64,000 nucleotides of DNA from Syntrophaceae bacterium (GCA_013388635.1 JACAEX010000080.1:5803-69802), one strand, 5' to 3'. Shown: positions 5,969-27,557, counted from the stretch's first letter. Made by a program: numbers and translations. The notes: generated by a model from the letters alone, not told the origin.

Positions 5969-5993
5969 ATTTCTATCACAAGAGGTGAAAGGA

Positions 5994-10746: not shown

Positions 10747-10942
10747 AGTCAATGGTCGAAGGGTAACGGCAAGGAGGTCCGTTTCGTTAGGGGGTTAGGT
10801 TTTCAGAGTCTTTTAGCCGTAACCCATTCACGATATACGAAACCGGCTTTGTAACCATAACCCATTGACCATTTCGCTGTTTGTAGGTGACGAAATCGAC
10901 CCAATGACTCAATGATTTGTTCTTGATCAGGAGGAGCAGATA

Positions 10943-11659
10943 ATGATCCCCATTACGATTGATGGCCAGCCTGTTGAGGGAAAAGAGGGTGAGAATATCT
11001 TGCAAGTGGCACTCGATGCGGGATTTGATATTCCCCATCTCTGTTATAACGAAAATGTTAAGCCTTATGGCGCTTGCCGTCTCTGCCTGGTGGAGGTGGT
11101 CCGGAGAGGGAGGTCGAGAATGACCACTGCCTGCACCTATCCTGTCATGGAGGGGATTGAGGTGCTCACCCAATCGGAAAAGGTCTTGCGGGCTCGGCGG
11201 ATGATCATGGAACTTATCCTCGCCATGTGTCCGGGAGATAAACTGATCCAGGACATGGCGAAGCAGATGGGGGTTGAGCAGGTTCGTTTCAAGAAGGACG
11301 ATAATAAAGATTGTATCCTCTGCGGTCTCTGTGCCAGGGTGTGCGATGAAGTGGTGGGTGCCCATGCCATCAGCTTTGCCTTCAGGGGAGATCGGAGAGA
11401 GATGGTGCCTCCGTTTCTCGGGGAGGCGATGAATTGCATTGCCTGTGGAGCTTGCGTGGTTGTCTGTCCGGTGGATGTGATCCGGATGAAAGAGGAGGGG
11501 GATGAGCGGACGATCATCCGGTGGAAGCGGACCCTGAAGATGAAGCAGTGCAAGGTCTGCGGGAACTATTTTGCTCCCTGGTTTCAGCTGGAGAAGTTTA
11601 AAGAAAGGGCCAAGCTCCCGAAGGACTTTTTTGATGTCTGCTTCACCTGTCGGGGTTGA
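10943..11659 (+). CDS. NuoG-N-terminal-like iron-sulfur protein (2Fe-2S plus His/Cys 4Fe-4S and 4Fe-4S dicluster)
   Basis: 238 aa. A plant-type 2Fe-2S ferredoxin start (ITIDGQPVEGKEGENILQVALDAGFDIPHLCY...C...C) is followed by 4Fe-4S motifs (CILCGLCARVCDE; CIACGACVVVCPVD). It lacks any catalytic hydrogenase or FDH domain. RBS GGAGGAG lies upstream. Confidence 0.7.
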   Translation: MIPITIDGQPVEGKEGENILQVALDAGFDIPHLCYNENVKPYGACRLCLVEVVRRGRSRMTTACTYPVMEGIEVLTQSEKVLRARRMIMELILAMCPGDKLIQDMAKQMGVEQVRFKKDDNKDCILCGLCARVCDEVVGAHAISFAFRGDRREMVPPFLGEAMNCIACGACVVVCPVDVIRMKEEGDERTIIRWKRTLKMKQCKVCGNYFAPWFQLEKFKERAKLPKDFFDVCFTCRG

Positions 11660-11719
11660 CATCATCGACGAATTGGAATATAGTTATTTCAATACAGTTT
11701 ATCATAGGGAGTTGCAGGT

Positions 11720-12361: not shown

Positions 12362-13186
12362 CTACGGAATTACCCGGAACTCGACCCTTCTGTTCTTGGC
12401 CCTGCCTTCTTTGGTTGTATTATCTGCAATGGGCTTTATGCTTCCGTACCCTTTTACGATCAACCGATCCTCTGGGATGTTAAACTTATCTTGCAGATAC
12501 TTCTTCGCGCTAAGGGCCCTCTTTTCTGATATCTTCTGGTTCGCGGTTGCCGAGCCGGCTCCATCGGTATGCCCTCCGATTTCCACCTTGAGCTGGGGGT
12601 TTCCTTTAAGGATCATCCCGTTTCGATCCAGCGCCTTGGCTGCCAGAGGGCTGATATTTGTCTTGTTGGGTTCGAAATAGATCGTGTCAAACACCGGAGG
12701 CGCAACCGGTTTTGGTGGAGGAGCTGGTTTGGGTGGGGGAGGCGGTGGCGGCGGAGGAGGCGCTGCTGGTGTAGGCGGTGGCGGCGCAGGAGGCGCCGGA
12801 GGCGGAGGTGCTGCTGGTGTAGGCTCTGGCGGCGTAGGAGGCGCCGGAGGCGGTGGAGGTGGCGCTGGCGGTGCTGGTGGTGCCGGCGGTTTTTCGCAGA
12901 TCCTAATCGCTTCTAAGGACCTCTCTTTCGATATCGCAATGGCTTGGTCTATCTTATCAGTGGGCTTCAACCAAAATTTACGGATCCCATAGTCAGCCAG
13001 AGCCAGGTTCGCCTCCGCGGCAGCGTATTCACAAGGTGCGCACTTTTTTGCTCCGATCAATGTGGCCTTTTGAAATAGATCTTTAGCTTCATCATAGGCC
13101 ATCATGGTCTCTCGGCTAACGGCACATCCTGAAGCGATCATTGCTCCCAAGATAAGAACGATCAACATCATCCACTTCTTGCTCAT
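12362..13186 (-). CDS. OmpA-family lipoprotein with N-terminal DUF4398-like domain and long proline-rich (PAPP) linker
   Basis: Lipoprotein signal (LILGAMIASGC). The C-terminal OmpA peptidoglycan-binding motifs are NTDxxGxxxYNxxLSxxRA-like (HTDGAGSATANQKISEKRALSAKKYL). The linker of roughly 75 aa is almost pure P/A/T. Confidence 0.8.
   Translation of the reverse strand: MSKKWMMLIVLILGAMIASGCAVSRETMMAYDEAKDLFQKATLIGAKKCAPCEYAAAEANLALADYGIRKFWLKPTDKIDQAIAISKERSLEAIRICEKPPAPPAPPAPPPPPPAPPTPPEPTPAAPPPPAPPAPPPPTPAAPPPPPPPPPPKPAPPPKPVAPPVFDTIYFEPNKTNISPLAAKALDRNGMILKGNPQLKVEIGGHTDGAGSATANQKISEKRALSAKKYLQDKFNIPEDRLIVKGYGSIKPIADNTTKEGRAKNRRVEFRVIP
12700..12900 (-). repeat. low-complexity GC-rich (GGN/CCN) tract encoding the Pro/Ala-rich linker
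   Basis: Degenerate repeats of ggcgg/ggagg/gctgg units on the plus strand. They lie within the coding sequence of the OmpA-domain gene. Confidence 0.7.
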
Positions 13187-13561: not shown

Positions 13562-13813
13562 TTATTTTTTCTCTTCAAGATATCTTTTAAGACAGTCCGG
13601 GTTGCAAAAAAAATGGTCCTTTCCTCCGACTCTCTTTTTTATGGCGGATCGTTTCGGGATATAGGTCTTGCAATAGGGATCCTCAACCAGTTCTTCCGGC
13701 TCGGATCTTCCATCCCTTCTCTTTCTGAAGAGCAAGATGTCCTTGATCAGGAAGTAGAGAACATAGTAGAAAACGGAGACGAGAATAATGAAAAAGATGA
13801 GTCGAACCATCAC
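13562..13813 (-). CDS. small membrane-anchored YHS/TRASH-like metal-binding domain protein
   Basis: 83 aa with an N-terminal TM helix. The C-terminal DPYCKTY...GGKDHFFCNPDCLKRY matches the YHS-domain pattern (DPVCGM...GKxYYFCSxxC). Confidence 0.5.
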   Translation of the reverse strand: MMVRLIFFIILVSVFYYVLYFLIKDILLFRKRRDGRSEPEELVEDPYCKTYIPKRSAIKKRVGGKDHFFCNPDCLKRYLEEKK

Positions 13814-13885: not shown

Positions 13886-14386
13886 CTATGCCCTTTGCGT
13901 TTCAATTCTTTCCACCCCCTGATCCTCTTTGATCTCGTCCAGGAGCTCTCCCACACTCTTTTTTAGCACAGGATGGATCAAGTTTCGATCGATCTCGGCA
14001 AGGGGGATGAGGACGAACTGGCGCTCATGAAGGAGAGGATGTGGGATCTGGAGCTCTTCTGTTCTGATCTTCCTATCATCGAACATGAGGATGTCGAGAT
14101 CGATCACGCGCGGACCGTATCGGAACGTTTGTTTGCGGCCCAGACGGGTTTCGATCAGCTTCAGCTCCCGGAGGAGCCTGAGAGGTTCAAGGGCTGTTTC
14201 GATCTTTATCACGCCATTGACGAACCAATCCTGGTCGGTGTAACCCACCGGTTTCGTTTTGAAGAGCGAGGATTTTGCCAGGAGCCTATGGTTATCCACG
14301 ACCAGAATTTCGGCGATGGCCTGTTCGCACTGGTGAACTTTGTTCCCAACGTTTGAACCGATCCCAATATAGGCAATATGGCTCAT
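13886..14386 (-). CDS. folK: 2-amino-4-hydroxy-6-hydroxymethyldihydropteridine diphosphokinase
   Basis: HPPK motifs (IAYIGIGSNVG...GPRVIDLDIL...ERQFVL). The start is taken at an internal ATG (MSHIAYIG). Confidence 0.8.
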   Translation of the reverse strand: MSHIAYIGIGSNVGNKVHQCEQAIAEILVVDNHRLLAKSSLFKTKPVGYTDQDWFVNGVIKIETALEPLRLLRELKLIETRLGRKQTFRYGPRVIDLDILMFDDRKIRTEELQIPHPLLHERQFVLIPLAEIDRNLIHPVLKKSVGELLDEIKEDQGVERIETQRA

Positions 14387-14521
14387 TCTGGCCGGAGAGG
14401 AGAGGCCCCCAGTTTCACCCTGCACCGTTCAAGACCCCGTCTTCTAATCAAGTAAGGAAATCCCTTTTAGGGAGAGATCCTCCCGATCAAAATGGGGGCT
14501 TCAAGGAGATGCGGCACGGGT

Positions 14522-14713
14522 TTACTTTTTCTCCGAGACTTCTTCGCTCTTTTTCGGAGTGACGTCGATCTCTTCCTGGTCCTTGGTCGCCTTCCTGAAG
14601 TTCCGGATCCCTTTACCAATACCCTCACCGATCTGGGGCAGTTTTCCAGCACCAAAAATGATCAGAACGATCACCAGGATCACGATCAACTCCGGCATCC
14701 CTATCCCGAACAT
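14522..14713 (-). CDS. tatA: twin-arginine translocase subunit TatA/E
   Basis: 63 aa. [29 protein letters not shown]... is the canonical TatA N-terminus, followed by a charged tail. Confidence 0.85.
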
Positions 14714-14798: not shown

Positions 14799-14893
14799 TG
14801 GCGGAAGTGCATGGGAATCGAACCCACCGCGGACATCTTCTGCCCGCCACTGGATTTGAAGTCCAGGAGGCCCACCAGGACCTAACCACTTCC
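14799..14893 (-). tRNA. selC: tRNA-Sec (selenocysteine tRNA, anticodon UCA)
   Basis: The minus-strand read is GGAAGTGGTTAGGTCCTGGTGGGCCTCCTGGACTTCAAATCCAGTGGCGGGCAGAAGATGTCCGCGGTGGGTTCGATTCCCATGCACTTCCGCCA (95 nt). Anticodon stem CTGGA/TCCAG with loop CTTCAAA gives anticodon TCA. Long variable arm (GCGGGCA-GAAGA-TGTCCGC). T-loop TTCGATT with a 5-bp stem. 7-8 bp acceptor stem and an encoded CCA. Confidence 0.8.
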
Positions 14894-14900
14894 AGCTCTC

Positions 14901-14929
14901 AGAATAATAGGTTTTCTCTTTAAAGTCAA
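14901..14929 (-). promoter_or_regulatory. sigma70-like promoter for selC (TTGACT-N17-TATTCT)
   Basis: On the minus strand, TTGACT-ttaaagagaaaacctat-TATTCT ends 7 nt before the tRNA 5' G. Confidence 0.45.
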
Positions 14930-14973
14930 CCCATTCGAGGGGCTCGGCCGGTTGTCAGAGAGGTCTCCCTCTC

Positions 14974-15234
14974 TCAAAGACCCAGCTTGCTCAGGGTTTG
15001 CGGGCCAGAGATCCTTAGCGTCTTCTCTCGGGAGTGATGGCCCCTGATGATTTTGATTTGGGAGGGCGAGATCTGTAATTCCTCGGCTAAGAACAGGATC
15101 AGGCCGCGGTTTGCTTTTCCCTCAACCGGAGGGGCAGCCACCCTTATCTTCACTCCGTCTCGGTATGGACCGACGATCTCGTTCTTTGCCGATTTTGGTT
15201 GAACGTAAACCTTCAAGATAATGCTTTCCATCAC
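14974..15234 (-). CDS. DUF167 (YggU/UPF0235) family protein
   Basis: 86 aa. The motif VKIRVAAPPVEGKANRGLILFLAEEL is typical of DUF167. The tracked start is GTG. Confidence 0.7.
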   Translation of the reverse strand: MMESIILKVYVQPKSAKNEIVGPYRDGVKIRVAAPPVEGKANRGLILFLAEELQISPSQIKIIRGHHSREKTLRISGPQTLSKLGL

Positions 15235-15282
15235 CGGTTTGATTTGTGCCAGCTGCTATTCTGAGGTCATTCCCTCGGGATA

Positions 15283-15350
15283 ATGGAATAGTGGAACAAT
15301 GGAATAATGAAGACAACCAATTTTCCATCATTCCATTATTTCGTTATTCC
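15283..15350 (-). repeat. array of TGGAAT/ATTCCA hexamer repeats forming an imperfect palindrome
   Basis: ATGGAATA-GTGGAACA-ATGGAATAATGAAG-acaaccaatt-TTCCATCATTCCATT-atttcg-TTATTCC gives three direct and three inverted copies. The coordinates are approximate. The array lies in the pgeF/DUF167 intergenic region and overlaps the pgeF stop. Confidence 0.4.
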
Positions 15351-16127
15351 GATGAATGAGAGTTGTCTTCCTGTCTGACCTTCTCCTCGGTAGGAGAAGA
15401 AGAGCTCCCTGTGGCAGCTGGTGCAGAGATCGATCCTGAAGATCTGCTCTTCTCGAATCCCCTCTTTTTTCATCTGGTCGATATTGATCGCAACAAGGTC
15501 CACGTTCCATCTTCCACCTCCTTTTGGAATGGAGAAGGATTCCCACTCTGGCCGAAAGACCTTGGCATCGATTTCATAGCAACATGGTCCGATGGAGGGG
15601 CCCAGGGCGATGAGGAGGTTTTCTGATAGACAGCCGAATTCTGTCTTCATCCTTCTTAGAACCTTTGTGGTGATACCAAGGCCTGTGCCCGCTCTTCCGG
15701 AATGGATCGCTGCGATCACCTTCCTTTTCCGGTCGGCGACGAAGATGGGAAGGCAGTCCGCTGTGAGGATGCCGAGAAAGATATTGGGGCAATCCGTGAT
15801 CATCGCATCATATTCTAAACGGTGAGCAAGAGCGGTCAGAGGTTCTCTGACCCAGAGAATCTGGTCTTGATGGCTTTGACGAAGAAGAACCAGGCGGCCT
15901 GGATCGAAATCAAACGCCCGGGCAATCAGACTCTTATTATTGGAAACGCGCTCTTCTTTATCACCGTTATCATCGCTCAGGTTGAGAGAATCATAAGGTG
16001 GAGAACTCACCCCTCCCTGACGGCTGAGGAAGGCGTGTTGGAGCCAACCGGTTTTTGAAAGTTCACGGATCTCAAAGTAGGGCAGACCATTTTTCGTTTT
16101 TAGAGAAGATCGATCGATGATGTTCAT
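15336..16127 (-). CDS. pgeF: peptidoglycan editing factor PgeF (YfiH/laccase-domain, purine nucleoside phosphorylase-like)
   Basis: Start at the internal ATG 16127 (MNIIDRSSLKTKNGLPYFEI...). Motifs ADCLPI, GPCCYEI and LCTSCH are present. It is adjacent to rluD, as in E. coli. The tracked 72-aa N-terminal extension is rejected. Confidence 0.8.
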   Translation of the reverse strand: MNIIDRSSLKTKNGLPYFEIRELSKTGWLQHAFLSRQGGVSSPPYDSLNLSDDNGDKEERVSNNKSLIARAFDFDPGRLVLLRQSHQDQILWVREPLTALAHRLEYDAMITDCPNIFLGILTADCLPIFVADRKRKVIAAIHSGRAGTGLGITTKVLRRMKTEFGCLSENLLIALGPSIGPCCYEIDAKVFRPEWESFSIPKGGGRWNVDLVAINIDQMKKEGIREEQIFRIDLCTSCHRELFFSYRGEGQTGRQLSFIGITK

Positions 16128-16156
16128 CTGAATTACCGAACGTAGCCCTAAAGAAT

Positions 16157-17173
16157 TCACCCTCGCCCTCTCCCGTTGGGGGAGAGGGCAGATGTTGTTC
16201 GGCGTGAGCGTAACCGTTCCAGTACTTCGTTCATATCTTGAGGGATCGGAGAAATGAATCGGACCCTTTCCCCTGTTCGGGGATGATCGAACCCCAGTCG
16301 ATGGGCATGAAGGGCCTGGCGATTCATCCTCGCCACACATTCCTTCAAGAAAGGATCATGGATACTCCCCGGTCTTCCCTTCCTTCCATAAACAGGGTCT
16401 CCTAATAGGGGATGGCCCGTCGAGGAGAAATGGACCCGGATCTGGTGGGTCCGACCTGTCTCGGGGAAGACCTCGAGGAGGGTGAAACCATAAAACCTTT
16501 CGATCACCTTCCATCGGGTGATGGCCATCCTTCCCTTTTTGGTGCGAGTGGACATTCGTTTTCTTTCACTCGGATGTCTTCCAATAGGAGAATCGATCAG
16601 GCCTTCATCCTTGCTGAATTGACCATAGGCGATGGCCAGATAGACCTTTTCCACTGTGCGGTTTTTGAATTGCTTGGTCAATTGATGATAGGCCTGATCA
16701 TCTTTGGCAACGACCATCACGCCCGACGTATCCTTATCCAAACGATGGACGATCCCAGGCCGCAAGGTTCCATTAATCCCGCCAAGGTCTTTACAATGAT
16801 GGAGAAGTGCGTTGACCAGCGTGCCGGAAGGGTTTCCAGCGGCTGGATGAACGACCATTCCTGGAGGCTTATCGACGACAATGATCGAAGGGTCCTCATA
16901 GAGGATGTTGAGGGGAAACGGCTCGGGTTTAACGTCGAGCGGCCTGGGCTGAGGAATAATTCCCGATACCCGATCGCCCGGTTTCACCCGCACACCGGGT
17001 TTCGTCGGCCTCTGGTTCAGCAGGATGCTTCCCGCATCGATCAGTTTCTTGATCTGAGAGCGGGAGAGATTGAGATCGGCTTCAGAGAGGAATTGATCGA
17101 GGCGTCTTCCCTCGTCCCGTTTTGTTATGGTGATGGAGAAATGTTTTCCTATCTCAAATCTATTCTCATACAT
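16157..17173 (-). CDS. rluD: 23S rRNA pseudouridine synthase RluD (RluA family)
   Basis: Start at internal ATG 17173 (MYENRFEIGKH...). S4 domain followed by the HRLDKDTSG catalytic motif. Confidence 0.85.
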   Translation of the reverse strand: MYENRFEIGKHFSITITKRDEGRRLDQFLSEADLNLSRSQIKKLIDAGSILLNQRPTKPGVRVKPGDRVSGIIPQPRPLDVKPEPFPLNILYEDPSIIVVDKPPGMVVHPAAGNPSGTLVNALLHHCKDLGGINGTLRPGIVHRLDKDTSGVMVVAKDDQAYHQLTKQFKNRTVEKVYLAIAYGQFSKDEGLIDSPIGRHPSERKRMSTRTKKGRMAITRWKVIERFYGFTLLEVFPETGRTHQIRVHFSSTGHPLLGDPVYGRKGRPGSIHDPFLKECVARMNRQALHAHRLGFDHPRTGERVRFISPIPQDMNEVLERLRSRRTTSALSPNGRGRG

Positions 17174-17231
17174 TGCATGTGGATTGATCGTGCATCTTTC
17201 AAGGATCGTAGAACATAATCTTTTTGGTTCG

Positions 17232-18680
17232 CTATGCACGATGCGCTTTGCTCTCTGCGGTTTTTGCAAGGGCCTTTTCAATTCCGGCGGCTAAGAGAGG
17301 AATCTCTTCATCCGAAATCGTTCTCATGTCCAGGATCAGTCCGTCCTTGCTGATTCGGGAGATGATCGGAGGCTCGGCTTTCCTCAAACCTTCTTCGAGA
17401 CCGTTCACGGACAGATCAACGGGCTTGAGGCGAACGACGACCGTTGGAAGTTCCTGAAGGGGGAGAGCTCCTCCACCGACCTGAGAGATATCCTCCTTGA
17501 GGACCGGGGTTGTCTTCTGCTTAATCCTTTCTGACAGGCTTCTTAGGAGACGCCTTGCCCTCCTCTTCAGTACAGCCCGATCGATTTTCAACATTCGAAG
17601 GGTCGGGATTTCTTCCATCGCCATCTTTTCATCGAGGTAGAGGAGGAGTGTGGATTCGAGCGCAGCTAAGGTCAGCTTGTCGATGCGAAGGGCTCGGGTC
17701 AGGGGATTGATTTTGACGAGGTCTAAGATGGCCTTCTTCCCCAAGATGATTCCGGCCTGGGGACCGCCCAGAAGTTTATCGCCGCTAAAAGTGACCAGGT
17801 CCACACCGGTCTGGATCGCCTCCGGGACAGTGGGTTCTCTTTCCAATCCATATTGACTGAGGTCAAGAAAGCAACCGCTTCCCAAGTCGTGCATCACAGG
17901 GAGGTGATTCTCTTTTCCCAGTTGAACGAGATCTTGGAGAGGGGTATCGGCGGTGAAGCCCATCACCCTGAAGTTGCTGGTATGGACCTTCAGGAGCAAG
18001 GCCGTCTGGGGGCCGATCGCCCTCTGATAGTCGCCGATATAGGTTCGATTCGTCGTCCCGACCTCTCTGAGAAAAGCTCCACTCCGTTTCATCACGTCAG
18101 GGATCCGAAACGCCCCTCCGATCTCGACCAGCTCCCCTCTCGAGACGATCACCTCTTTTCCTTCTGCGATCGTATTGAGGGCCAGCAAGACCGCGCCGGC
18201 GTTGTTGTTCACCACCATGGCCGACTCCGCACCTGAGAGACGGCAGAGGATCCCTTCCACATGGGTATAGCGGCTTCCCCGATCGCCCCGATCGAGGTCG
18301 TATTCCAGATTGGAGTAACCTCTGGCGATCTCTATCATGTGCTGAAGCGCAGAAGGGGCCAGGGGTGATCTTCCGAGATTGGTGTGGATCACCACTCCGG
18401 TCGCATTGATGACGCGACAGAGCCGGGGCTGGATCTGAACGGTGACCTCCCTCTGGAAAAGGGGATAAAGATTCTCGAAGGAGAATATCCCATCGTCAAG
18501 ATCGGAGAGGTCTTCCGTTTTCAGGATCTCTGAACGGAGCCTTTCCAGTCCCTTTCGAACGGCCTCCACCACGACGGCTCGAGGATGGACCTTCAAAAGG
18601 TCAGCCATCTCTGGCCTTGAGAGGATTTCATCGACCTTCGGTATCTTACGAAGGACCTGTTGACGAAGGGAGGGAGACAT
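17232..18680 (-). CDS. selA: L-seryl-tRNA(Sec) selenium transferase
   Basis: 482 aa. SelA motifs are present (INATGVVIHTNLGRS; FSGDKLLGGPQAGII with the PLP lysine). The N-terminus SLRQQVLRKIPKVDEIL resembles E. coli SelA SLYSQLPAIDRLL. Its 5' end overlaps the 3' end of the upstream radical-SAM ORF by about 35 nt. Confidence 0.9.
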   Translation of the reverse strand: MSPSLRQQVLRKIPKVDEILSRPEMADLLKVHPRAVVVEAVRKGLERLRSEILKTEDLSDLDDGIFSFENLYPLFQREVTVQIQPRLCRVINATGVVIHTNLGRSPLAPSALQHMIEIARGYSNLEYDLDRGDRGSRYTHVEGILCRLSGAESAMVVNNNAGAVLLALNTIAEGKEVIVSRGELVEIGGAFRIPDVMKRSGAFLREVGTTNRTYIGDYQRAIGPQTALLLKVHTSNFRVMGFTADTPLQDLVQLGKENHLPVMHDLGSGCFLDLSQYGLEREPTVPEAIQTGVDLVTFSGDKLLGGPQAGIILGKKAILDLVKINPLTRALRIDKLTLAALESTLLLYLDEKMAMEEIPTLRMLKIDRAVLKRRARRLLRSLSERIKQKTTPVLKEDISQVGGGALPLQELPTVVVRLKPVDLSVNGLEEGLRKAEPPIISRISKDGLILDMRTISDEEIPLLAAGIEKALAKTAESKAHRA

Positions 18681-20412
18681 TCGGTTTCCTCCTCATCAGG
18701 AGCGTCTTCACAATCTTGATGAAGTTCATCCGGATGAATCGGGTGGGCCACTCCAGTTCCTTCTTCTCGCAGACCGTTGACATGCTGTAGGCGTGAAGGG
18801 AGAGATCCCCGGGCAAAATCGAATCCAGGGCCCTCTCCCTTTCCTTCGGGTCAGAAAGGGCCATGATCTCGTCGATCTGTTTCATCACCCGGACAGCAGC
18901 CTCGATCCGCCTCTCGACCGATTCAGCCGTCTTTCGGTCGATCAGGCCAAATTCGGCCTTCAGACGATTGAGCCTCTTCCCCGCTTCATAGGTGCTATAG
19001 ACGATTTCATCACGGCTCATCCATCGGGTTTCGTAGTTGAGGATGTATTTCCAGCTGGGGGCCATTAAGGCCTGACGGTGCTCTTCAACGGTCCTGCAGA
19101 AAAGCCGGTATCCATATCTCTCCGGTTCTTCGAAGGCAGCGCTTCCAGGGTCTAAGAAAGGGGCGAGGGGAGAGATGAAGGGAATGAGTTTCGGATAGGG
19201 CTGGAATCGCTTTAAGAGGTATTGGCAGTAATCAACCGTCTCCAGCACCGAGTGATAGGTCTGCCCTGGAAGACCGGTCATGAAGAAGAGATCGATCCGT
19301 TTGGAACCGAGGTCAATGGCATCGCCGATCATCCTCTCCAGAGATTTGTTGTCATAAGGCCTTCCGAAGGTCTTTCGAACCTCTTCGTCGTGCGATTCCG
19401 GAGAGATCTCGATATTGAAATTCGGAATGGCCTCGGCAATCCTTTCGAGTCGATCCCTTGAGGGAGGGACAAAGAATTCGAAGGCGATGTGATTGGTGAT
19501 CCGCCTCTTTTTCATCTCCTGAAGAAAGGTGAGGCCATAGGCCTCACCGGGCTGGAAGATATCGCCGATGATCATCACCGGCGCGAGGAGGTGGTCTGCG
19601 ATATGGAAGATATCCTGGGCCAGAAGCCTTGGGTCTCGGTAGGCGGGTCTCCTCCGGTTAGCCATGGACCGAAACGTCTGGGACGAGCCGCCGCACGTTT
19701 TGCAGTGATAGCTACATCCGCGGCAGGTGAAGACCGCCGTAACCGGATAGGTGTACCAGTCGATAAAAGGCTGGTAACCCACGGGATCGGCATACCTGAC
19801 CACCTTCTTCATGATGTGGCGGTAGTCGATCGCCATGTCGTCGAGGTTCTCCGGCACGTAGGAGAGGGGATTGACCCGAATCCCATTTCCTCCGTCGCGG
19901 TAGGTGAGATTGGGAATATTTTGGAAATCTCCCTTTCCCTTGATCGCCCGGAGGAGCTGGAGAAGAGGCTTCTCCGTGGAATCTCCTTTGACCACAAAAT
20001 CGACGAAAGGATATTGGCGGAGGATCTCCTCGTGATAGTAGGTGGCGGAGAGACCGCCTAAAATGACCGGTGTTTCAGGGTGAAATCTCTTGATGATCTC
20101 CGCCAGAGCCAGCGCGCCCTGGACATGGGCCATCCAGTGAAGATCGAGACCGAAGGCCACGGGCTTACTCTTTTGGATGAGCCGTTCCACATCGAACCTT
20201 CTATCCTTCAGCATCTTCAAAGCGATATTGATAATCCTCACCCGGAGGCCGTGGCGTTCCAGGTATTCTGAGAGGCTGGCAAATCCAATCGGGTACATCT
20301 CAAAGATAGGGGTTGACGGAACGACATCACTGATCGGGCCATGGATCCCGGGTCTTTTCCTGAAATCGTAAAGGGTAGGGGGGTGGAGAAGGATCAGGTC
20401 AATGGTGGCCAT
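18646..20412 (-). CDS. B12-binding-domain radical SAM protein (class B; BchE/HpnJ-like)
   Basis: 588 aa. N-terminal cobalamin-binding Rossmann-like domain (DLILLHPP...YPIGFASLSEYL...VILGG). Radical-SAM CxxxCxxC motif (CSYHCKTC). Confidence 0.8.
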   Translation of the reverse strand: MATIDLILLHPPTLYDFRKRPGIHGPISDVVPSTPIFEMYPIGFASLSEYLERHGLRVRIINIALKMLKDRRFDVERLIQKSKPVAFGLDLHWMAHVQGALALAEIIKRFHPETPVILGGLSATYYHEEILRQYPFVDFVVKGDSTEKPLLQLLRAIKGKGDFQNIPNLTYRDGGNGIRVNPLSYVPENLDDMAIDYRHIMKKVVRYADPVGYQPFIDWYTYPVTAVFTCRGCSYHCKTCGGSSQTFRSMANRRRPAYRDPRLLAQDIFHIADHLLAPVMIIGDIFQPGEAYGLTFLQEMKKRRITNHIAFEFFVPPSRDRLERIAEAIPNFNIEISPESHDEEVRKTFGRPYDNKSLERMIGDAIDLGSKRIDLFFMTGLPGQTYHSVLETVDYCQYLLKRFQPYPKLIPFISPLAPFLDPGSAAFEEPERYGYRLFCRTVEEHRQALMAPSWKYILNYETRWMSRDEIVYSTYEAGKRLNRLKAEFGLIDRKTAESVERRIEAAVRVMKQIDEIMALSDPKERERALDSILPGDLSLHAYSMSTVCEKKELEWPTRFIRMNFIKIVKTLLMRRKPNVSLPSSTGPS

Positions 20413-20417
20413 GTCAA

Positions 20418-21563
20418 TTATCTCGCGGACTGGGCTTTCTTCGGTTCTGGAAATTTTGATAGATAGAGATCGACCATCTTTCGGATGCGAGGGTCATCTT
20501 TCGTACTTTCGCCGAGCAGGAAGATCGCATTGGTAAATTCGTTCTTTCCCTGGAGTTGTCTGAGGTTTCGCTCAACCTCCTCTTTTGCCTTTTGCCATTG
20601 GGCCTTTTCGGCCTCTGTTGCCCCTTTTTCCATCAATCGATAGTGGAGGCTCCTCAGGCCCTGTTCCATGGTCTGCTTGGCCGCGGTGTTGTAAAAGAAG
20701 GGTTCTCGATTATGAAAGGTAAGATCGATTCTTCCCGCATACATTCCCTTCGGGGCGGTCTGGAGGACGATCGTTCTGTTATAAGCGACACGGGGATAGG
20801 GAAGGTTGATCCCTGTATGACTGCCTATGATGAGGTGAATTCCAGAAAGGGTGTTTGCCAACTCCAGATCCTTGGGATAGCCCAGGTGGCTCAAGAGGAT
20901 GACGAGATCGGTTTTGGGTTGAAGTTCTTTGATCATGTTCTGGGCCGTTTCAACAGGAGATTTGAGGATCAGGCCTTTTTTTCTAAGATCTCCTTCGCCC
21001 AGGAAAAGATCAGGGGAGAGAAGGCCAAAGATACCTATTCGCAGACCGTCGATCTCTTTTAAGAGATAGGGCTGAAAAAGAGGTTTTCCTGATGACTCAT
21101 CAAAGAGGTTGGCAGAGAGGAGAGGGAAATTGGCCTTCTTCGCAATCTCTAAGAGGAAGTCCTTCCCGAGGGTGAGATCGTCATCGCCAACCCCCAGGGC
21201 GTCATAACCCATCAGATTGAAACTCTCGATGATCAGGTGAGCCCTTTCAGCGACCATCTTCAGCTCATCTTCCTGAACGGGCTTAGAAAACTTCTTAAAT
21301 AGAAGATCGCCTGCATCTAAGACCAGCACTCGTTTTTCAGCCTCCCTCGTTTCCCTCACCCATGTTGCCCTTCTGGCCAGACCGCCAAAACGATTCCTCG
21401 GGTCTCAGCCAGGACAGGGCTCGATCTCCCCATTGATATTATTGCTGTAAAGGATCGTAAGGTTCTTGACCGGGTTTTGGGCATGACAAGGGATGCTCGG
21501 ATTTGCCCAGAGAAACCCCAAGATCGAAAGGAGGATAAATAGCAGTTTTGCAGGCCCCATCAT
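20418..21563 (-). CDS. candidate selenoprotein: secreted 5'-nucleotidase-like metallophosphoesterase-domain protein with in-frame TGA (CPGU motif)
   Basis: The minus-strand frame runs from ATGATG at 21563 (GAGGGG RBS) through 52 codons (MMGPAKLLFILLSILGFLWANPSIPCHAQNPVKNLTILYSNNINGEIEPCPG). It then hits TGA at 21405-21407 and continues in frame (DPRNRFGGLARRATWV) into tracked ORF 20418..21359, whose annotated start is GTG. Homology to the UshA-type N-domain is continuous across the TGA. If the TGA is a true stop, the gene is split or a pseudogene. Confidence 0.5.
21405..21407 (-). other. in-frame TGA (putative Sec codon) in metallophosphoesterase-like gene
   Basis: Codon 53 of the 20418..21563 reading frame. 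Local context is C-P-G-TGA, a CxxU-like motif. Confidence 0.45.
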
Positions 21564-21879
21564 TTACCCCTCAATTCAATCAAATTCATATATACCCCAT
21601 CCCTCCCTTAGAGTCAAATAGGGACAGCGCCCATTAAACATAATTTTTTGCTTCGATAGATGAGACAAGATTGGCGTTGAAACCTTTTGGGGAATCCCGG
21701 CTTTCTCAGGATTTCAGCAATCCAGAACGTTGGCTGCTCAGTGCGGGCAAGGATCTTCTTCCGCATGAATTGTGAGGATCGCTCGATTTAGGGTGGAAAT
21801 AGGATTTTATCCACCTACACAGAGGACCACGAGGTTTGCGGTGTGGGGATTCGATACTCGTATATCCTTTTCTGATCAA

Positions 21880-22722
21880 TTATGAAGTCCAGGGGTTTGG
21901 GACGGGCCGATTATACCCTTTCTGAGAGGCTAAGATGTCGAGATGGAGAGTAGCCACATCCTCTAAGATTGGTTCACATTCTTCGATCTTTCTCAGGTCG
22001 ATGGTCTTGATATATTGATGGCATTTTTCGCAAAGGTCGATGCGATAGGCTTCCTCCCCCTCGGCATAGAAGTATTGCAGGGAGCCCCGTTCTTTGTTTC
22101 CGCAGAAAGGACATGACAGTCTATCGATTCGCCACTCAAATCCGCAATAGGAGCAGAGGAGGTAACGTTTTCCTCCCTCGCCTTTCAAGAGAGCAAAGGA
22201 GGGTAGGGAACCACAGATCGGGCAGTGGCCTTTGAGCCAGGTTTCAGCATCCACTTCTTGACCGAGCCTTTTCACCCCTTCCTCAAGAGAGGGCTTCAAG
22301 CTTTCATGAAGAAGGAAGAGAAAGACCTTCCGATCCATTTCGAATTGATCAGCCACCTTTTCTCCTTCTATCTCTCCGGTGAACACCTTCTTCAGATCGA
22401 ATCTTTTTTGGCTGATAACCTCCCGGATCTTTTCCACCTGCTCAGCCATATGAGGGGTTGCCTCTTTTGCAATGTTGCAGAGCGAGTGAAATAAAAGAGA
22501 GGAGGCCTCAAGGTCCACCGGGAAATCCTTTCTTTCGAGCATTGAAAAGCCTTCCCTGGCCAACAGCTCCTTCCACTCCTTTTTGAGATGAACGGGTTCG
22601 ACTTTCAAGGAATCTTTGATCTTCTCCTGCTCTTCCCTGACTTGCTGGTAGAAGTTCAGGATCTCTGTGTAGCCGGGTCGCTTCTTTTTGAGATGCTGAA
22701 TCCTTTTTCTTAGCTTTTCCAA
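21880..22722 (-). CDS. fdhE: formate dehydrogenase accessory protein FdhE
   Basis: 280 aa with four CxxC pairs (CPICG...CSYCG...CPFCG...CEKCH), the characteristic FdhE arrangement. Confidence 0.8.
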   Translation of the reverse strand: MEKLRKRIQHLKKKRPGYTEILNFYQQVREEQEKIKDSLKVEPVHLKKEWKELLAREGFSMLERKDFPVDLEASSLLFHSLCNIAKEATPHMAEQVEKIREVISQKRFDLKKVFTGEIEGEKVADQFEMDRKVFLFLLHESLKPSLEEGVKRLGQEVDAETWLKGHCPICGSLPSFALLKGEGGKRYLLCSYCGFEWRIDRLSCPFCGNKERGSLQYFYAEGEEAYRIDLCEKCHQYIKTIDLRKIEECEPILEDVATLHLDILASQKGYNRPVPNPWTS

Positions 22723-23121
22723 AGAAACTCTCCTAACCTCCCTCTATTCCGCTCTTGACTTAAGGGGGGATGAAGGGGGGTCATGAAAGAAACGGGCTTG
22801 TTTCGGAACTTCCATACCCAAAACAAGCCCTTCCGTTTCCCCGTCCCCCATCGGAGACTGTGTTATAACTTGCCAGAAACCGTTTCCGTTGCCACACAGA
22901 AGAGGCGGTCAGGTGACGAAGCCTTAAGGCGGAAACCTCTTATTCGATCAGCTTCTGAGTCCCAAGCCGAAGAAAGAAATCGCATTTCCCACAAGGCCGA
23001 TGACCCATAACTTTAAATGACCGCATCCTAAGGCTGAGGATGCCTGACTGCCTCTCCCACCTGGACCAGCTCCCTATCACGATTCCGACAAAGTCTCTCG
23101 ATAGGGAGGAAGAGTAAGGGA

Positions 23122-23856
23122 TTACCCGATCGTCATGCTTCTCAGGGGTTGAAAGATACGTCTAAGGGCCATCTTCCTTGTGATCCCGATCGTATTGTCC
23201 GCCACAGCTCTCTTATGATACTTCTTGGGATCGTCCACGAGGAGGTAAATCACCCTCACGTCATCCGGATTGGCCAGCATGGCTTCCTGATAAAGACCTT
23301 TGACTTCTTCGAGCCTCTTGTTTGCCCTCTCCAGGATCTCCCTCCGATCACCGAAACTCATCGCTCCGGTGGGACAGGTCTTGACGCAGGCAGGCAGCAT
23401 TCCCTCCTTGACCCTGTCGAAACACATTGTGCATTTCGCCATGGTTCCAGAAGCGGGATGGAACCTTGGGATGTCGTAGGGACAGGCCTCTCGGATCTCT
23501 TTAAACTCGTCGGCCTTTATCTTCACCTTCGGGTTGAAAACCACTGCCCCGGTCTTTTCGTCCTGGATGATGGCGCCCTTTGCCTTCCCGTCTGCCACCT
23601 CTTTGCAGGGAGGGGTGAGACAGTGGCGACATTGATCCGGGAAGAAATACCATTTCGGTTCCCCTCCGGGTATTGCCACCTCATTGAATCTTACCAACTT
23701 AAACGTGTAAACGGAAAGATCAGCTGGATTTTGATGATTTCCTCGCTGAAGGGTTTTCGTCCCAGGATTCTTATTCCACTGCTTGCAGGCGATCTGGCAG
23801 CCTCGGCAGGCAGTACATTTCGTCGTGTCGATAAAGAAAGATTTTCCTTCTGTCAT
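23122..23856 (-). CDS. fdhB: formate dehydrogenase iron-sulfur (beta) subunit, FdnH/HybA-like 4x[4Fe-4S]
   Basis: Multiple CxxCxxCxxxCP motifs (CTACRGCQIACK; CRHCLTPPCKEV; CPYD; CTMC...CVKTCP). A GAGGAGGTGAG RBS lies 6-8 nt upstream. It sits immediately downstream of fdhA. Confidence 0.85.
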   Translation of the reverse strand: MTEGKSFFIDTTKCTACRGCQIACKQWNKNPGTKTLQRGNHQNPADLSVYTFKLVRFNEVAIPGGEPKWYFFPDQCRHCLTPPCKEVADGKAKGAIIQDEKTGAVVFNPKVKIKADEFKEIREACPYDIPRFHPASGTMAKCTMCFDRVKEGMLPACVKTCPTGAMSFGDRREILERANKRLEEVKGLYQEAMLANPDDVRVIYLLVDDPKKYHKRAVADNTIGITRKMALRRIFQPLRSMTIG

Positions 23857-23872
23857 TTATCTCACCTCCTCC

Positions 23873-26800
23873 TCAGCCCTTTTTCGCGGCCGGTTTTTGC
23901 GTGATCTTGCGAACGTTGGCCATAAAGGCCTTGGATTCCGGAATCATGGTATTGGGATCACCGATCGTAGGAGTGAGGAGATTCGCACTCTCTCCTCCGT
24001 CCTTTGGGTGGAGCCAGCCAAAATGCCACGGAATTCCTATCTGGTGAACGGTCTGCCCGGCGACGTTGAACGGCTTCAGCCGAGAGGTCACAATAGCCAC
24101 GGCCACGAGCCTTCCCCTTGGAGTTTCCACAGACACCCGGTCACCGTTTTTGATCCCTCGCAGCTTGGCCAGTTCGATGCTCATCTCACAAAAGACCTGA
24201 GGTTCAGCCTCAATCAGCCAGGGCAGCCATCGGGTCAATACGCCGGTCTGCCAGTGTTCGGTAACCCGGTAGGTGCTGCAAACAAAGGGGTATCTCGGAT
24301 CGCAGGTCGCAAATGTGTCCGGACCTCCCTCGAAGATCTTGACCACAGGGTTGATCCTCTGGCTGGACATCAGATTCTTCTCGATCGGACATTCGAGAGG
24401 CTCGTAGTGTTCAGGGAAAGGACCGTCCTTCAAGCCAGGTCCGAAGATGGATGATACTCCATCGGGTTTCATAATGAACGGATAGGCTCCGGTGGTCCCC
24501 ATGGGAGGCACGGCATTGTCAGGGACGTCGCCTATCCATTTCTTTTCCGTCGGGTCCCATCTGAGGAGGGGCCGTTTTGGGTCTCGAGGATTTCCGTCAA
24601 GATCCACTGAGGCTCTGTTGTAGATGATTCTGCGATTCAGTGGCCAGCACCATGACCACTCGGGATAGAGGCCCAATCCGGTCGGGTCGGTCTTCTTTCT
24701 ACGGGCAGCCATATTCCCGGCCTCGGTATAGCTGGCAGAATAGAGCCAGTTCCCGCAAGAGGTCGTCCCATCATCTTTTAAAGCGACAAAATTGGGAACT
24801 AATTTGCCGGTCGTGAGATCGTAGCCGTTGATCTCTTTTGCAACCTTATGGATATCAAAATGGCCACCGGATTCGTAGTCCCACTTCAGGTTTAAAATCG
24901 GCTCCGGGAAGGCCCCCTTTTCCTTTTCATAGAGGGCCCGAACCTTCTTAAAGAGTTCATATATGATATCGCCATCGGGCTTCGCCTCTCCAGGAGGATT
25001 GGCACATTTATAGCGCCATTGCATCCAGCGACCGCTGTTCGAGATGCTTCCTTCTTTTTCGAGGAAGGCGGCACAGGGGAGCTGGAAGACCTCGGTCTTG
25101 ATCTTCTTCGGATCCATTCCCGGGCCCTTCCAGAACGATCCTGTCTCGCTGTCGAAGACGTTGACATTGACCATCCAGTCAAGCTTTGCCAAGGCCTGGC
25201 GGACCTTTCCCGCATGGGCGCTTGAACAAGCAGGATTCATTCCCCAGGCAAAGAAACCGGTGAAGGTCCCTTTATACATCTCATCGAAGAGATTTAACCA
25301 TGAGGCATCCTGAGTCGGATCGAGTTTGGGCATCCACGAGTATCCAAAATCGTTCTCTTTCGTCGCTTTCTCTCCAAACATCGATTTTAAGAAGCTCACT
25401 AGGTATTTGGGCCGGTGTCTCCACCAGTTCACACTTCTTGGGTCCTTCGTCGTCGGAGTCGTCTTATTGTAGTCGGCAATGGTTGGCCACTGGGCCCTTG
25501 GAGTGGGTAAATACCCGGGGAGGATATGGAAAAGCAATCCCTGATCGGTTGACCCCTGGACATTGGATTCACCCCGGAGGGCGTTGACACCTCCTCCTGC
25601 AATCCCCATATTTCCGAGGAGATCCTGGATGATCGCCATGGCTCGAATGTTCTGGACGCCGACCGTATGCTGAGTCCATCCCATCGCGTAGAGGACGGTC
25701 CCTGCTTTATCAGGGGCACCTGTTGAGCCATATGCCTTGTAGACGTTTTCCAGGTCGGCCATCGGGGTTCCAGTAATTTCAGAGACCTTTTGGAGGGTAT
25801 AGCGGGAATAATGTTTCTTCAGGATCTGGAAGACGCATCGTGGGTCTTGAAGGGTCATATCCCTCTTCGGAATCCCATTTTCGTCCTTCTCCAAAGCCCA
25901 GGTCGATTGATCATAAGCCCTCTTGACCGGATCATAGCCTGAAAAGAGGCCGTCATCAAAACTATACTTGGGGTTGACGATGAATGAGGCATTGGTATAG
26001 TTCTTGACATAAAATTCATCGTAGAGGTTGTGGTCGAGAATATACTTGATCATGCCTCCGAGAAAGGCGATATCGGTTCCCGAACGAAGCCGCACAAAGA
26101 GATCGGCCTTTGTCGAGGTCCGGGTGAATCTGGGATCCACATGGATAAAGATCGCCCCTCTATCCTTCGCGGCCTGAATCCATTTAAAAGAGACCGGGTG
26201 ATTCTCGGCCACGTTTCCACCCATGTTTAGGATCACATCCGCGTTTCTGAAGTCGATATAATGATTGGTCATTGCACCGCGTCCGTACGACTCTGCCAGA
26301 GCCGCTACCGTGGCGCTGTGTCAGATACGGGCCTGATGTTCGATATAGACGATCCCCAATGCCCTGAGGAACTTCTGATAGAGCCAGCATTCCTCATTGT
26401 CCAGGGCCGCGCTTCCAACGGATGCGATTCCATTGGTTCGATTGACCACCTGGCCCTGTGAATTTTTCTCCATAAAGCTTGCGTCACGGCTCTTCTTGAT
26501 GTTGGCCGCGATCTTATTCAGGGCCCATTCCCAGCTCACCTCTTTCCAGGTGGTGCTGTATGGGGCACGATAACGGACCTTCTGAAGCCGATGTGGATTG
26601 ACAGCGATTTGATAACTCGAGGCCCCTTTGGCGCAGAGAGCTCCTTCGTTGATGGGATGGTCAGGATCTCCCTCGGCGTTAATCACCTTTCCTTTGGCAT
26701 CGGTGTGAACGATGATTCCACAGCCGACCGAGCAGAAACAACAGATCGACGTCGTCTCCTTCGCACCCTTGATTCTAAGTTGTTGGGCATAGACATCCGC

Positions 26801-26890
26801 AGCGGACAGATCGAACCCCAGGCCGCCCATCACCGTCCCTGCAGCAGTGGCGCCCGAGATCTTTAAAAAGGTTCTTCGGGTAATCTTCAT
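23873..26890 (-). CDS. fdhA: formate dehydrogenase catalytic subunit, selenocysteine-containing, Tat-exported (FdnG/FdhA)
   Basis: Two tracked ORFs (26321..26890 and 23873..26272) are joined in frame through the TGA at 26321-26323. This gives ...GIVYIEHQARI-U-HSATVAALAESYGRGAMTNHYIDFRNADVIL..., the conserved Sec active-site context of FdnG/FdhF. The N-terminus has a twin-arginine signal (TRRTFLKISGATAAG) and a CxxCxxxC 4Fe-4S motif. Confidence 0.9.
26284..26309 (-). promoter_or_regulatory. putative SECIS hairpin downstream of fdhA UGA
   Basis: On the minus strand, after an 11-nt spacer from the UGA, GCGGCUC-UGGCA-GAGUCGU can form a roughly 7-bp GC-rich stem-loop. The spacing fits bacterial SECIS elements. 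It was folded by eye only. Confidence 0.3.
26321..26323 (-). other. UGA selenocysteine codon of fdhA
   Basis: It is the stop codon of tracked ORF 26321..26890. The frame continues into ORF 23873..26272 with the consensus Sec-FDH sequence. Confidence 0.85.
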
Positions 26891-27059: not shown

Positions 27060-27557
27060 TCAAAGAGCATTGTGAAAGATACCACAAACGTTTTTTTTGT
27101 CAAGAAAAAAGTTTGCAAATTTCTTCATCCCGGAAAAAGCACTCACAATCGGCTTTCTCGTATCCGGATCGTCCGATAGCTCAAAGTTGAGTTGCTCTGA
27201 AAGGAGGCTAAGGGTTCTTTTTTTATCTGTCGGATGGATCCAGAGATCGTGGTCTGCTGTAAGAACGGGTGCACCATACAAGATGATGGCTCGACGACCA
27301 ACGATGAGGTATCGGATCTTATGGCGATTAAAGCTTCTTATGAGGTCAACGAATTTAACTTCTTTTCTGGTTTCATCCGTTTTTAAACCAAACTTATTGA
27401 TGAAGGTCTGAATTTCTTCCCATTCCCTGTCTATGTATGGTAGCCGTTCGACAGGGGAAAACTTAGAAAACCAGAGAAGGTCCTCGGCAAGCTGACGTTG
27501 TCTCCATAAGGGGATATCCTTAAGGGATTTTGGATATACGATCTTTTTTAAAGCCAT
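27060..27557 (-). CDS. hypothetical protein in AT-rich segment (possible nucleotidyltransferase-fold protein)
   Basis: 165-aa ORF in a region that looks lower in GC than its neighbours. The motif KIRYLIVGRRAIILYGAPVLTADHDLWIHP resembles a minimal nucleotidyltransferase fold (G[GS]x9-13DxD). The function is unassigned. Confidence 0.3.
   Translation of the reverse strand: MALKKIVYPKSLKDIPLWRQRQLAEDLLWFSKFSPVERLPYIDREWEEIQTFINKFGLKTDETRKEVKFVDLIRSFNRHKIRYLIVGRRAIILYGAPVLTADHDLWIHPTDKKRTLSLLSEQLNFELSDDPDTRKPIVSAFSGMKKFANFFLDKKNVCGIFHNAL

Follow-up and report, generated by a model that had tools for sequence, protein, structure and literature searches.

A TIGR04190 radical SAM gene overlapping selA beside a selenocysteine formate dehydrogenase operon, and its possible place in a quinone-linked module

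Gene layout of the locus

Here, we describe a row of co-oriented genes in DNA from a Syntrophaceae bacterium (64,000 nt, the whole of which is called the window below). Within this row, a gene for a B12-binding radical S-adenosylmethionine (SAM) protein of the TIGR04190 family lies between the gene of an exported UshA-like selenoprotein and selA. The tRNA gene for selenocysteine (Sec), selC, closes the row downstream, and an operon for a Sec-containing formate dehydrogenase (FDH) adjoins it upstream. Comparison with related loci suggests that the row may form three adjacent units and that the radical SAM protein may serve an FDH- and quinone-linked respiratory module and not Sec insertion. Gene calls were made from open reading frames (ORFs) together with Pfam and NCBIfam profile searches, and gave the following features.

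14799-14893, minus: selC, tRNA-Sec gene, anticodon TCA (ARAGORN; Rfam RF01852, 81.3 bits against a gathering score of 47)
14901-14929, minus: predicted promoter-like site of selC, TTGACT-17 nt-TATTCT (consensus scan; ends 8 nt before the tRNA)
14974-15234, minus: DUF167 (YggU family) protein (PF02594, 89.9 bits; TIGR00251, 93.7 bits)
15336-16127, minus: pgeF, YfiH/Cu-oxidase_4 family (TIGR00726, 162.6 bits against a cutoff of 141)
16157-17173, minus: RluA-family pseudouridine synthase, RluD-like (TIGR00005, 319 bits)
17232-18680, minus: selA, L-seryl-tRNA(Sec) selenium transferase (TIGR00474, 622.6 bits against a cutoff of 267.9; PF03841 and PF12390)
18646-20412, minus: B12-binding domain/radical SAM protein, TIGR04190 (672.9 bits against a cutoff of 500; PF02310 and PF04055)
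20418-21563, minus: UshA-like selenoprotein ORF, exported (signal peptide; NF041198, 257.2 bits)
21371-21390, minus: hairpin in the UshA-like gene resembling a Sec insertion sequence (SECIS), from RNA folding
21405-21407, minus: UGA (Sec) codon of the UshA-like gene (in-frame TGA)
21589-21617, minus: predicted promoter-like site of the UshA-like gene, TTGACT-17 nt-TATATA (read from sequence; island CTTGTTTTCGAAGGATGGATGGGGTATAAATA)
21880-22722, minus: fdhE-like FDH accessory protein (PF24860 and PF24859 above their cutoffs; NCBIfam FdhE equivalogs below theirs)
23122-23856, minus: fdhB, FDH Fe-S (beta-like) subunit (PF13247, 131.7 bits; TIGR01582, 140 bits, below its cutoff)
23873-26890, minus: fdhA, FDH alpha subunit, Sec-containing, exported by twin-arginine translocation (TAT) (TIGR01553; PF10518)

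Two starts were adjusted to homologues: that of pgeF was set at Met72 of a long ORF after proteins of 262 aa, and that of the rluD-like gene at Met37 after proteins of 336-338 aa. The RluD equivalog scored 276 bits on the latter product, below its cutoff of 351. A sequence-only reading of this DNA had described the genes from the UshA-like gene to selC as sharing the minus strand with short gaps or overlaps, and both profile searches and measured distances agree with it. The gaps amount to 80 nt between selC and DUF167, 101 nt between DUF167 and pgeF, 29 nt between pgeF and rluD, 58 nt between rluD and selA, and 5 nt between the radical SAM and UshA-like genes, while 316 nt separate the UshA-like gene from fdhE. 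Since the minus strand holds every gene between 12362 and 37473 (~25 kb), co-orientation is weak evidence on its own. The position of selA between the B12 radical SAM gene and the rluD-pgeF pair likewise holds in the profile-identified gene order, and the overlap of the radical SAM 3′ end with the selA start, earlier put at about 35 nt, is exactly 35 nt. The same 35-nt overlap is present in the separately called genes of two related contigs, and selA has its Shine-Dalgarno sequence, GAGGAGG, within the 3′ end of the radical SAM gene, 7 nt 5′ of the ATG.

Sec machinery and the adjoining formate dehydrogenase operon

Both a SelA equivalog (TIGR00474) and the tRNA-Sec gene are present at the locus. 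The window was also said to lack selB and selD, and three lines of evidence agree: the EF-Tu-type G1 motif is absent in all its frames, tblastn of the window with four SelB proteins returned nothing below E = 0.8, and its sole SelD-like (AIR-synthase-like) ORF is ThiL (TIGR01379, 331 bits). Neither gene was found in the ~5 kb past one window end. Of the accompanying premise that selA usually travels with selB or selD, the part on selD is not the norm, as selD is rarely contiguous to selAB and its location elsewhere is normal (PMC1273633). The absent selD is therefore not unusual, and the absent selB is the less usual feature of this locus.

The sequence-only reading overlooked an operon for a periplasmic Sec-FDH, fdhA[UGA]-fdhB-fdhE (21880-26890, minus), directly upstream of the UshA-like gene. 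The UGA codon of fdhA (26321-26323) occupies a classic context, ...EHQARI-U-HSATV... in the read-through translation. TIGR01553 matched the C-terminal part of this FDH-N-type protein with 1183 bits and the N-terminal part with 249 bits, and a TAT signal was recognized by PF10518. The gap between fdhB and fdhE measures 399 nt. In the corresponding fdh loci of relatives from the Planctomycetes-Verrucomicrobia-Chlamydiae (PVC) group and the Spirochaetes, an NrfD-like subunit is present instead of a cytochrome b gamma subunit. Two UGA-containing genes lie within 9 kb of selA and selC, and among bacterial selenoproteins none is more widespread than FDH (PMC1273633). The location of selA and selC here is thus largely accounted for by the adjoining Sec-FDH operon. 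Such sel-fdh clustering is an already known pattern, exemplified by the fdn-selABD-selC region of C. aurimucosum (PMC2830990).

Downstream of selC, also on the minus strand, follow tatA (TatA/B/E family, 14522-14713), folK (13886-14425) and a gene for a small YHS-domain protein (13562-13813). The same TatA-HPPK-YHS order occurs in two related contigs (L001 and L002). The proximity of TatA to an FDH locus that depends on TAT export may not be accidental.

Predicted transcription units

The TTGAC of the predicted selC -35 element is invariant in six relatives, in which the A/T-rich spacer is kept as well and the DNA farther upstream is unrelated. In three of these six, other genes intervene and the distance of selC from the operon is 3-4 kb greater. 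selC thus appears to be transcribed from a promoter of its own, as had been proposed. Upstream of the UshA-like gene, the island CTTGTTTTCGAAGGATGGATGGGGTATAAATA is common to eight relatives amid otherwise unalignable intergenic DNA between fdhE and the UshA-like gene. In one related contig (L001), ~7 kb of unrelated genes (toxin-antitoxin genes and others) split fdhE from the UshA-like gene, and the block of UshA-like gene, radical SAM gene, selA, rluD and pgeF is unbroken. A sequence scan of the intergenic gaps of the gene row found no terminator-like sites.

Because of the conserved promoter islands, the insertion in L001 and the lack of terminator-like sites in the gaps, we propose three transcription units. 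The first, fdhABE, would make a TAT-exported Sec formate dehydrogenase. The second, separately promoted, would run from the UshA-like gene through the TIGR04190 gene, selA, rluD and pgeF to DUF167, and selC would form the third under its own promoter.

The UshA-like selenoprotein

The ORF at 20418-21563 encodes a signal peptide followed by ...LYSNNINGEIEPCPG-U-DPRN... (in a fuller stretch, LTILYSNNINGEIEPCPG-U-DPRNRFGGLARR), and amounts to 381 aa with Sec read-through. A Pfam search of the ORF gave no match. Its NCBIfam scores fell under the cutoffs of both relevant families: 257.2 bits against 275 for NF041198, "UshA-like (seleno)protein", with profile positions 14-382 of 519 matched, and 79 bits against 140, far under the cutoff, for NF049981, "UshA-like selenoprotein family 2". 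Judged by sequence, the protein is a member or near-member (a short relative) of this known group of exported selenoproteins. UshA-like selenoproteins of COG0737 with a CxU motif have been catalogued since 2008 (PMC2398784), and NF041198 and NF049981 are both listed in a 2026 review (PMC13188914).

The gene had been put forward as a candidate selenoprotein gene, and the related loci strengthen that assignment: a TGA is present at the homologous site in every one examined (86 aligned directly, with L010 offset by one codon), and the protein belongs with the described UshA-like (COG0737) selenoproteins. The coding sequence 5′ of the TGA, an N-terminal extension, is conserved among relatives. The Sec motif is CxxU (...EPCPG-U-D...), more fully CP(G/T/S/V)U. 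Public gene calls of this protein (P0001-P0120) almost all start downstream, giving ~300 aa instead of 381, so that the selenoprotein is systematically truncated by gene callers. Two full-length database entries (P0002 and P0043) carry W at the Sec position and were therefore presumably translated with a TGA=Trp code table.

Downstream of the UGA, the predicted hairpin comprises UUUUGGC, a GGUCUG loop and GCCAGAA, with a fold energy of -20.1 kcal/mol (z = -1.95) and an apical loop that starts 21 nt past the UGA codon (the 25th nt counted from U). Its upper 5 bp are retained in 88-100% of 83 sequences, and one further pair is U-A in 21 sequences and C-G in 19. The same bases also encode an invariant GGLA peptide, which confounds the conservation signal, and only 3 bp survive in RNAalifold on the hairpin alignment. 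For these two reasons we grade the hairpin as consistent with, and unproven as, a SECIS element. Covariation support for a long SECIS helix was rejected, as the lower helix of the single-sequence fold is not conserved (52% paired) and RNAalifold left 3 bp.

The predicted fold is that of the N-terminal metallophosphatase domain of 5′-nucleotidases, with profile matches to UshA, 5′-nucleotidase and SoxB chains. The AlphaFold model of the homologue P0002 (predicted local distance difference test [pLDDT] score of 81) matches Escherichia coli UshA with E = 1e-21, and its Sec loop has a pLDDT below 50. In the metal-ligand motifs, SNNING replaces TNDxHG, GDDDL replaces GNHEF and GSHTG replaces GHxH, and the Cys-x-x-Sec loop comes after the first of these motifs. 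Because of these altered motifs, an ordinary dinuclear phosphoesterase site appears unlikely. A redox or metal site based on Cys and Sec is plausible instead.

Conservation of the gene row and separability of the selenoprotein and radical SAM genes

Relatives were gathered in two scans. The radical SAM scan covered a genome collection with one genome per species and returned 80 loci at 49-82% identity, and the UshA-like scan covered a metagenome collection and returned 80 loci at 52-71% identity. The order UshA-like gene, radical SAM gene, selA, rluD, pgeF recurs in related Syntrophales-type contigs. In the UshA-like scan, the radical SAM gene follows downstream in 48 of the 53 loci with at least 600 nt of downstream sequence, and selA in 25 of the 28 with at least 2.6 kb. 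The gene row is therefore conserved and not accidental.

The radical SAM genomes present another picture. By tblastn and ORF clustering, the order radical SAM gene, selA (then rluD and pgeF) was found in Thermodesulfobacteriota-type loci (L004-L015 and L049, and L022 with a partial selA at the contig end). A UshA-like gene accompanies it in five of the 80 loci only (L004-L007 and L010). In L008, L009, L011-L015 and L049, the radical SAM gene and selA adjoin without any UshA-like gene; upstream of the radical SAM gene stands rho in L011, L013 and L014, and other genes in L008 and L009. Conversely, UshA-like genes without radical SAM, selA or FDH genes nearby were found in five loci (L138, L144, L148, L157 and L159), all with the CPVU motif. 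This paralogous CPVU subclade lies near genes for multihaem c-type cytochromes, an outer-membrane-like protein and LolA/ABC-type proteins, labels that come from reading translations and not from hidden Markov model matches.

Since each of the two genes occurs alone, the "selenoprotein and radical SAM pair" of the sequence-only reading does not stand as a unit. This bears directly on the idea that the radical SAM protein is a dedicated maturase modifying the adjacent selenoprotein. The 5-nt distance between the genes, their frequent succession in the close loci and the precedent of B12-dependent radical SAM enzymes that modify peptides elsewhere (by NCBIfam names) speak for such a maturase. The persistence of the radical SAM-selA junction without a UshA-like gene and the existence of a UshA-like subclade without the radical SAM gene speak against it. 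So does the conservation of the radical SAM protein (49-89% identity across phyla), which far exceeds that of the selenoprotein, the opposite of the usual maturase-substrate pattern. Its distribution already largely refutes this role, which we regard as very improbable. The radical SAM protein is thus not a dedicated partner of the UshA-like selenoprotein.

The TIGR04190 radical SAM family

The window radical SAM protein is 100% identical to an NCBI protein from a metagenome-assembled genome (MAG), "TIGR04190 family... [Syntrophaceae bacterium]". Apart from this entry, its best 120 database matches are 81-89% identical. TIGR04190 corresponds to the NCBIfam "Ta0216 family", and its members are ~50% identical between phyla. 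The next-best NCBIfam match is the lipid methylase HpnR. The CxxxCxxC cysteines Cys233, Cys237 and Cys240 are each retained by 90% or more of the sequences in an alignment of 35 diverse homologues. In L004, the radical SAM protein is 82% identical to that of the window, compared with 60-77% for its neighbours, and it is as conserved as FdhA. The possibility that the radical SAM protein is itself a selenoprotein was ruled out: 80 homologues contain no in-frame TGA, only two terminal TAA at the C-terminal tail.

A neighbour-joining tree of the radical SAM proteins follows taxonomy, and is therefore consistent with one orthologous function. Its Sec-linked members fall into at least three clades, with most of them in one. 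The taxa of the MAGs that carry these genes are known as anaerobes.

Gene neighbours of the radical SAM gene across genomes

Neighbours within 10 kb of the radical SAM gene were tallied over the 80 species-level genome loci. selA or selB was found in 17 of the 80, and no other neighbour family is as frequent as selA (17/80). At least three Sec-linked architectures were seen: the radical SAM gene followed by selA; selA-selB followed by the radical SAM gene (L016 and L021); and the radical SAM gene followed by selC-selA-selB (L024). By a rough estimate of our own, about one in 80 random loci would be expected to have a sel gene within 10 kb. We conclude that the link between the radical SAM gene and Sec genes is real and beyond chance, and neither universal nor exclusive.

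A second context comprises menaquinone genes. menA, ubiE/menG or a polyprenyl diphosphate synthase gene was found near the radical SAM gene in 21 of the 80 loci, mostly directly adjoining and co-directional. This association spans more phyla than the Sec context (Ignavibacteria, Nitrospirota, Aerophobetes, Planctomycetota, Lentisphaerae, Bacteroidota and Chloroflexota). FDH genes were within range in seven loci, FDH together with menaquinone genes in four, and Sec together with menaquinone genes in two. The contexts converge in three loci (L023-L025), where a cluster of fdhAB, an nrfD-like gene, fdhE, mobA, menA, a polyprenyl synthase gene and a PTO1314-type radical SAM gene leads to the TIGR04190 gene. 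In the planctomycete L024, where the menaquinone genes are menA and the polyprenyl synthase gene, selC-selA-selB follows directly after the TIGR04190 gene. In L025, from Spirochaetota, mobA and the polyprenyl synthase gene stand between fdhE and the PTO1314-type gene, selB follows the radical SAM gene, and ~6 kb downstream the other strand carries selA and selC.

As a separate observation, L023-L025, as well as L019, L027 and L030 (among them MAGs of Planctomycetota, Spirochaetota, Lentisphaerales and Aerophobetes), have the look of a "formate:menaquinone" supercluster. Six Nitrospirota loci (L033, L035, L042, L060, L072 and L079) share a trio of ubiE/menG, a gene for a 226-aa protein with no Pfam or NCBIfam match, and the TIGR04190 gene. 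This trio adjoins genes for a multihaem cytochrome c and a cytochrome b-like membrane protein.

These counts bear on whether the radical SAM protein acts directly on selenium or Sec, by modifying tRNA-Sec or another part of the Sec pathway, by trafficking selenium or by maturing Sec-FDH. The rank of selA among its neighbours, the linkage in at least three clades and three architectures, the 35-nt overlap with the selA Shine-Dalgarno sequence inside the radical SAM gene, which suggests coupled expression, and the RNA-modifying rluD in the same operon all point that way. Against this, sel genes are missing from the 10-kb surroundings in 63 of the 80 loci, the link to menaquinone genes extends over a broader range of phyla, and FDH offers an indirect explanation of the sel linkage, as L023-L025 illustrate. 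Operon adjacency is also unspecific, because rluD and pgeF share the operon with no known role in Sec. A direct Sec role is therefore improbable in our assessment.

The opposite view is that no functional link exists, the row being a mixed "housekeeping" operon inherited vertically in Thermodesulfobacteriota and the other sel and FDH co-occurrences being coincidental. It is in keeping with the lack of functional relation of rluD, pgeF and DUF167 to one another or to selA, with the co-orientation of the whole 25-kb stretch, and with the concentration of most Sec-linked loci in one radical SAM clade. It accounts poorly for the excess of the observed over the roughly expected frequency, in at least three clades with differing gene orders. 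It also fits poorly with the upstream side of the radical SAM gene, where the genes vary (UshA-like, rho-coaE and others) and the junction with selA stays. We consider the absence of a link unlikely, though likelier than a direct Sec role or a dedicated maturase.

Interpretation

Starting from the observed gene identities, TGA conservation, synteny and neighbour counts, we favour the reading that the locus holds three adjacent units and that the radical SAM protein belongs to an FDH/quinone respiratory module and not to Sec insertion, and we give this reading as a whole a probability of roughly 0.5. TIGR04190 would most likely be a cobalamin-dependent radical SAM (methyl)transferase that acts on the isoprenoid-quinone pool serving formate-linked anaerobic respiration. 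As the chief consumer of Sec, FDH would draw Sec genes to this FDH/quinone module. In Thermodesulfobacteriota, the radical SAM-selA junction would have become fixed in an operon that also acquired rluD, pgeF and DUF167, and the tight coupling of the two genes would reflect co-expression within an "FDH support" module and not a role in Sec insertion. Both the substrate, a quinone, and the cause of the linkage to Sec genes are inferred from gene neighbourhoods.

Several observations weigh against this reading. Near the radical SAM gene, no menaquinone genes were seen in the window or in its close relatives, and no gene for a membrane, cytochrome b or quinone-binding gamma subunit was found between fdhB and fdhE or nearby. 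None of the Sec, menaquinone and FDH contexts applies to 44 of the 80 radical SAM loci. A MoxR gene flanks the radical SAM gene in 16 of the 80, all from Chloroflexota/Anaerolineae and most with DUF58 as well; in L020, L026, L029, L036, L050, L082 and others, the gene lies between those for a MoxR-type AAA ATPase and DUF58, a context unrelated to Sec or quinones. Even where radical SAM identity falls to 56% (L049), the gene still adjoins selA with a short gap or overlap, and this retention, together with the recurring sel architectures, could equally mean a direct Sec role. A PDB sequence search with the radical SAM protein gave no match, and the literature searched holds no biochemical or other account of TIGR04190/Ta0216. 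Furthermore, the known menaquinone ring methylases, MenK and MqnK, are class C enzymes (HemN-like, with no cobalamin domain) and are not B12-dependent.

The comparison of genomic context in relatives, which the sequence-only reading had called for, thus gives a divided answer. The row is conserved and the radical SAM gene lies near Sec genes in several architectures, and the selenoprotein and radical SAM genes are separable. Of the tie to Sec insertion capacity that had been suggested, a functional link of the radical SAM protein with Sec and FDH is plausible, without the pair and probably without a Sec-insertion factor.

A more far-reaching possibility is that TIGR04190 is an unrecognised accessory factor of selenium-dependent formate metabolism, with either a function in Sec-tRNA or Sec-FDH, or a modified (perhaps selenium- or methyl-bearing) quinone or cofactor for Sec-FDH as its product. 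We consider this rather improbable. If true, it would explain both the translational coupling of the radical SAM gene to selA across Thermodesulfobacteriota and its position wedged between menaquinone genes and selC-selA-selB in PVC and Spirochaete genomes.

Most of the locus is ordinary, the selenoprotein family and sel-fdh clustering being known. The coupled TIGR04190-selA junction and the dual Sec and menaquinone context are new in that neither was found in the literature searched, which contains no paper linking selA to a B12 radical SAM protein. Periplasmic FDH, together with electron transfer through menaquinone, is at the core of energy conservation in syntrophic and sediment bacteria. 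A conserved family, widespread in MAGs of typically anaerobic taxa, now has a testable hypothesis in quinone tailoring or, less likely, a Sec role.

Other genes in the window

Further along the minus strand, the gene at 12362-13186 encodes an OmpA-family lipoprotein with a Pro/Ala-rich linker of roughly 70 residues (PPAPPAPPAPPPPPPAPP...), which gives spurious long ORFs in other frames. On the plus strand, 5420-10746 encodes a four-subunit-type pyruvate/2-oxoacid:ferredoxin oxidoreductase (PorC, PorA and PorB) followed by NuoE/HoxE-like and NuoF-like proteins, and 40281-42011 a tungsten-type aldehyde:ferredoxin oxidoreductase with AFOR_N and AFOR_C domains. The minus-strand ORFs at 27060-27557 (165 aa, directly 5′ of fdhA) and 10787-11665 (292 aa) had no Pfam or NCBIfam match.

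Comparison with known systems

Among known Sec and FDH loci, E. coli, with selAB, selC and fdnGHI-fdhE, provides a comparable example. Like sel-fdh loci of the C. aurimucosum type, the window has selA and selC beside a UGA-containing fdhA, an Fe-S subunit gene and an FdhE gene. Unlike these, its selA has no selB after it and is overlapped by a B12/radical SAM gene in an operon with rluD, pgeF and DUF167, a second selenoprotein gene heads that operon, and the FDH has no membrane subunit gene.

The UshA-like protein shares with the NF041198 and NF049981 proteins export, the 5′-nucleotidase-type N-terminal fold and a Cys-x(1-2)-Sec motif shortly past the first metal-binding motif; the SECIS-like hairpin after its UGA may be a further common feature. 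It differs from NF041198 (PCGU, a CxU motif) in its CxxU spacing, its score below the cutoff and the unmatched C-terminal part of the profile. The CxxU spacing matches that of NF049981 (PMC13188914), whose score is far below its cutoff, and the altered motifs SNNING, GDDDL and GSHTG set the window protein apart from both families.

The TIGR04190 protein resembles class B radical SAM enzymes, the cobalamin-dependent class that includes HpnR/HpnP, BchE, Fom3/PhpK and ThnL (names from NCBIfam and PMC9407657), in having an N-terminal B12-binding domain followed by a CxxxCxxC radical SAM domain. It differs from the characterised families of this class in scoring at most 58 bits against cutoffs of 450-750. 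For Slr0320 of Synechocystis, itself a B12 radical SAM protein, quinone methylation has been speculated (PMC8065906). The menaquinone C-methyltransferases MenK, MqnK and MenK2, cited in PMC8065906 and PMC10114718, are of another fold class and offer a possible functional analogy by gene neighbourhood only: in both cases a radical SAM gene lies near men genes, in line with a putative tailoring of naphthoquinones for anaerobic formate-linked respiration.

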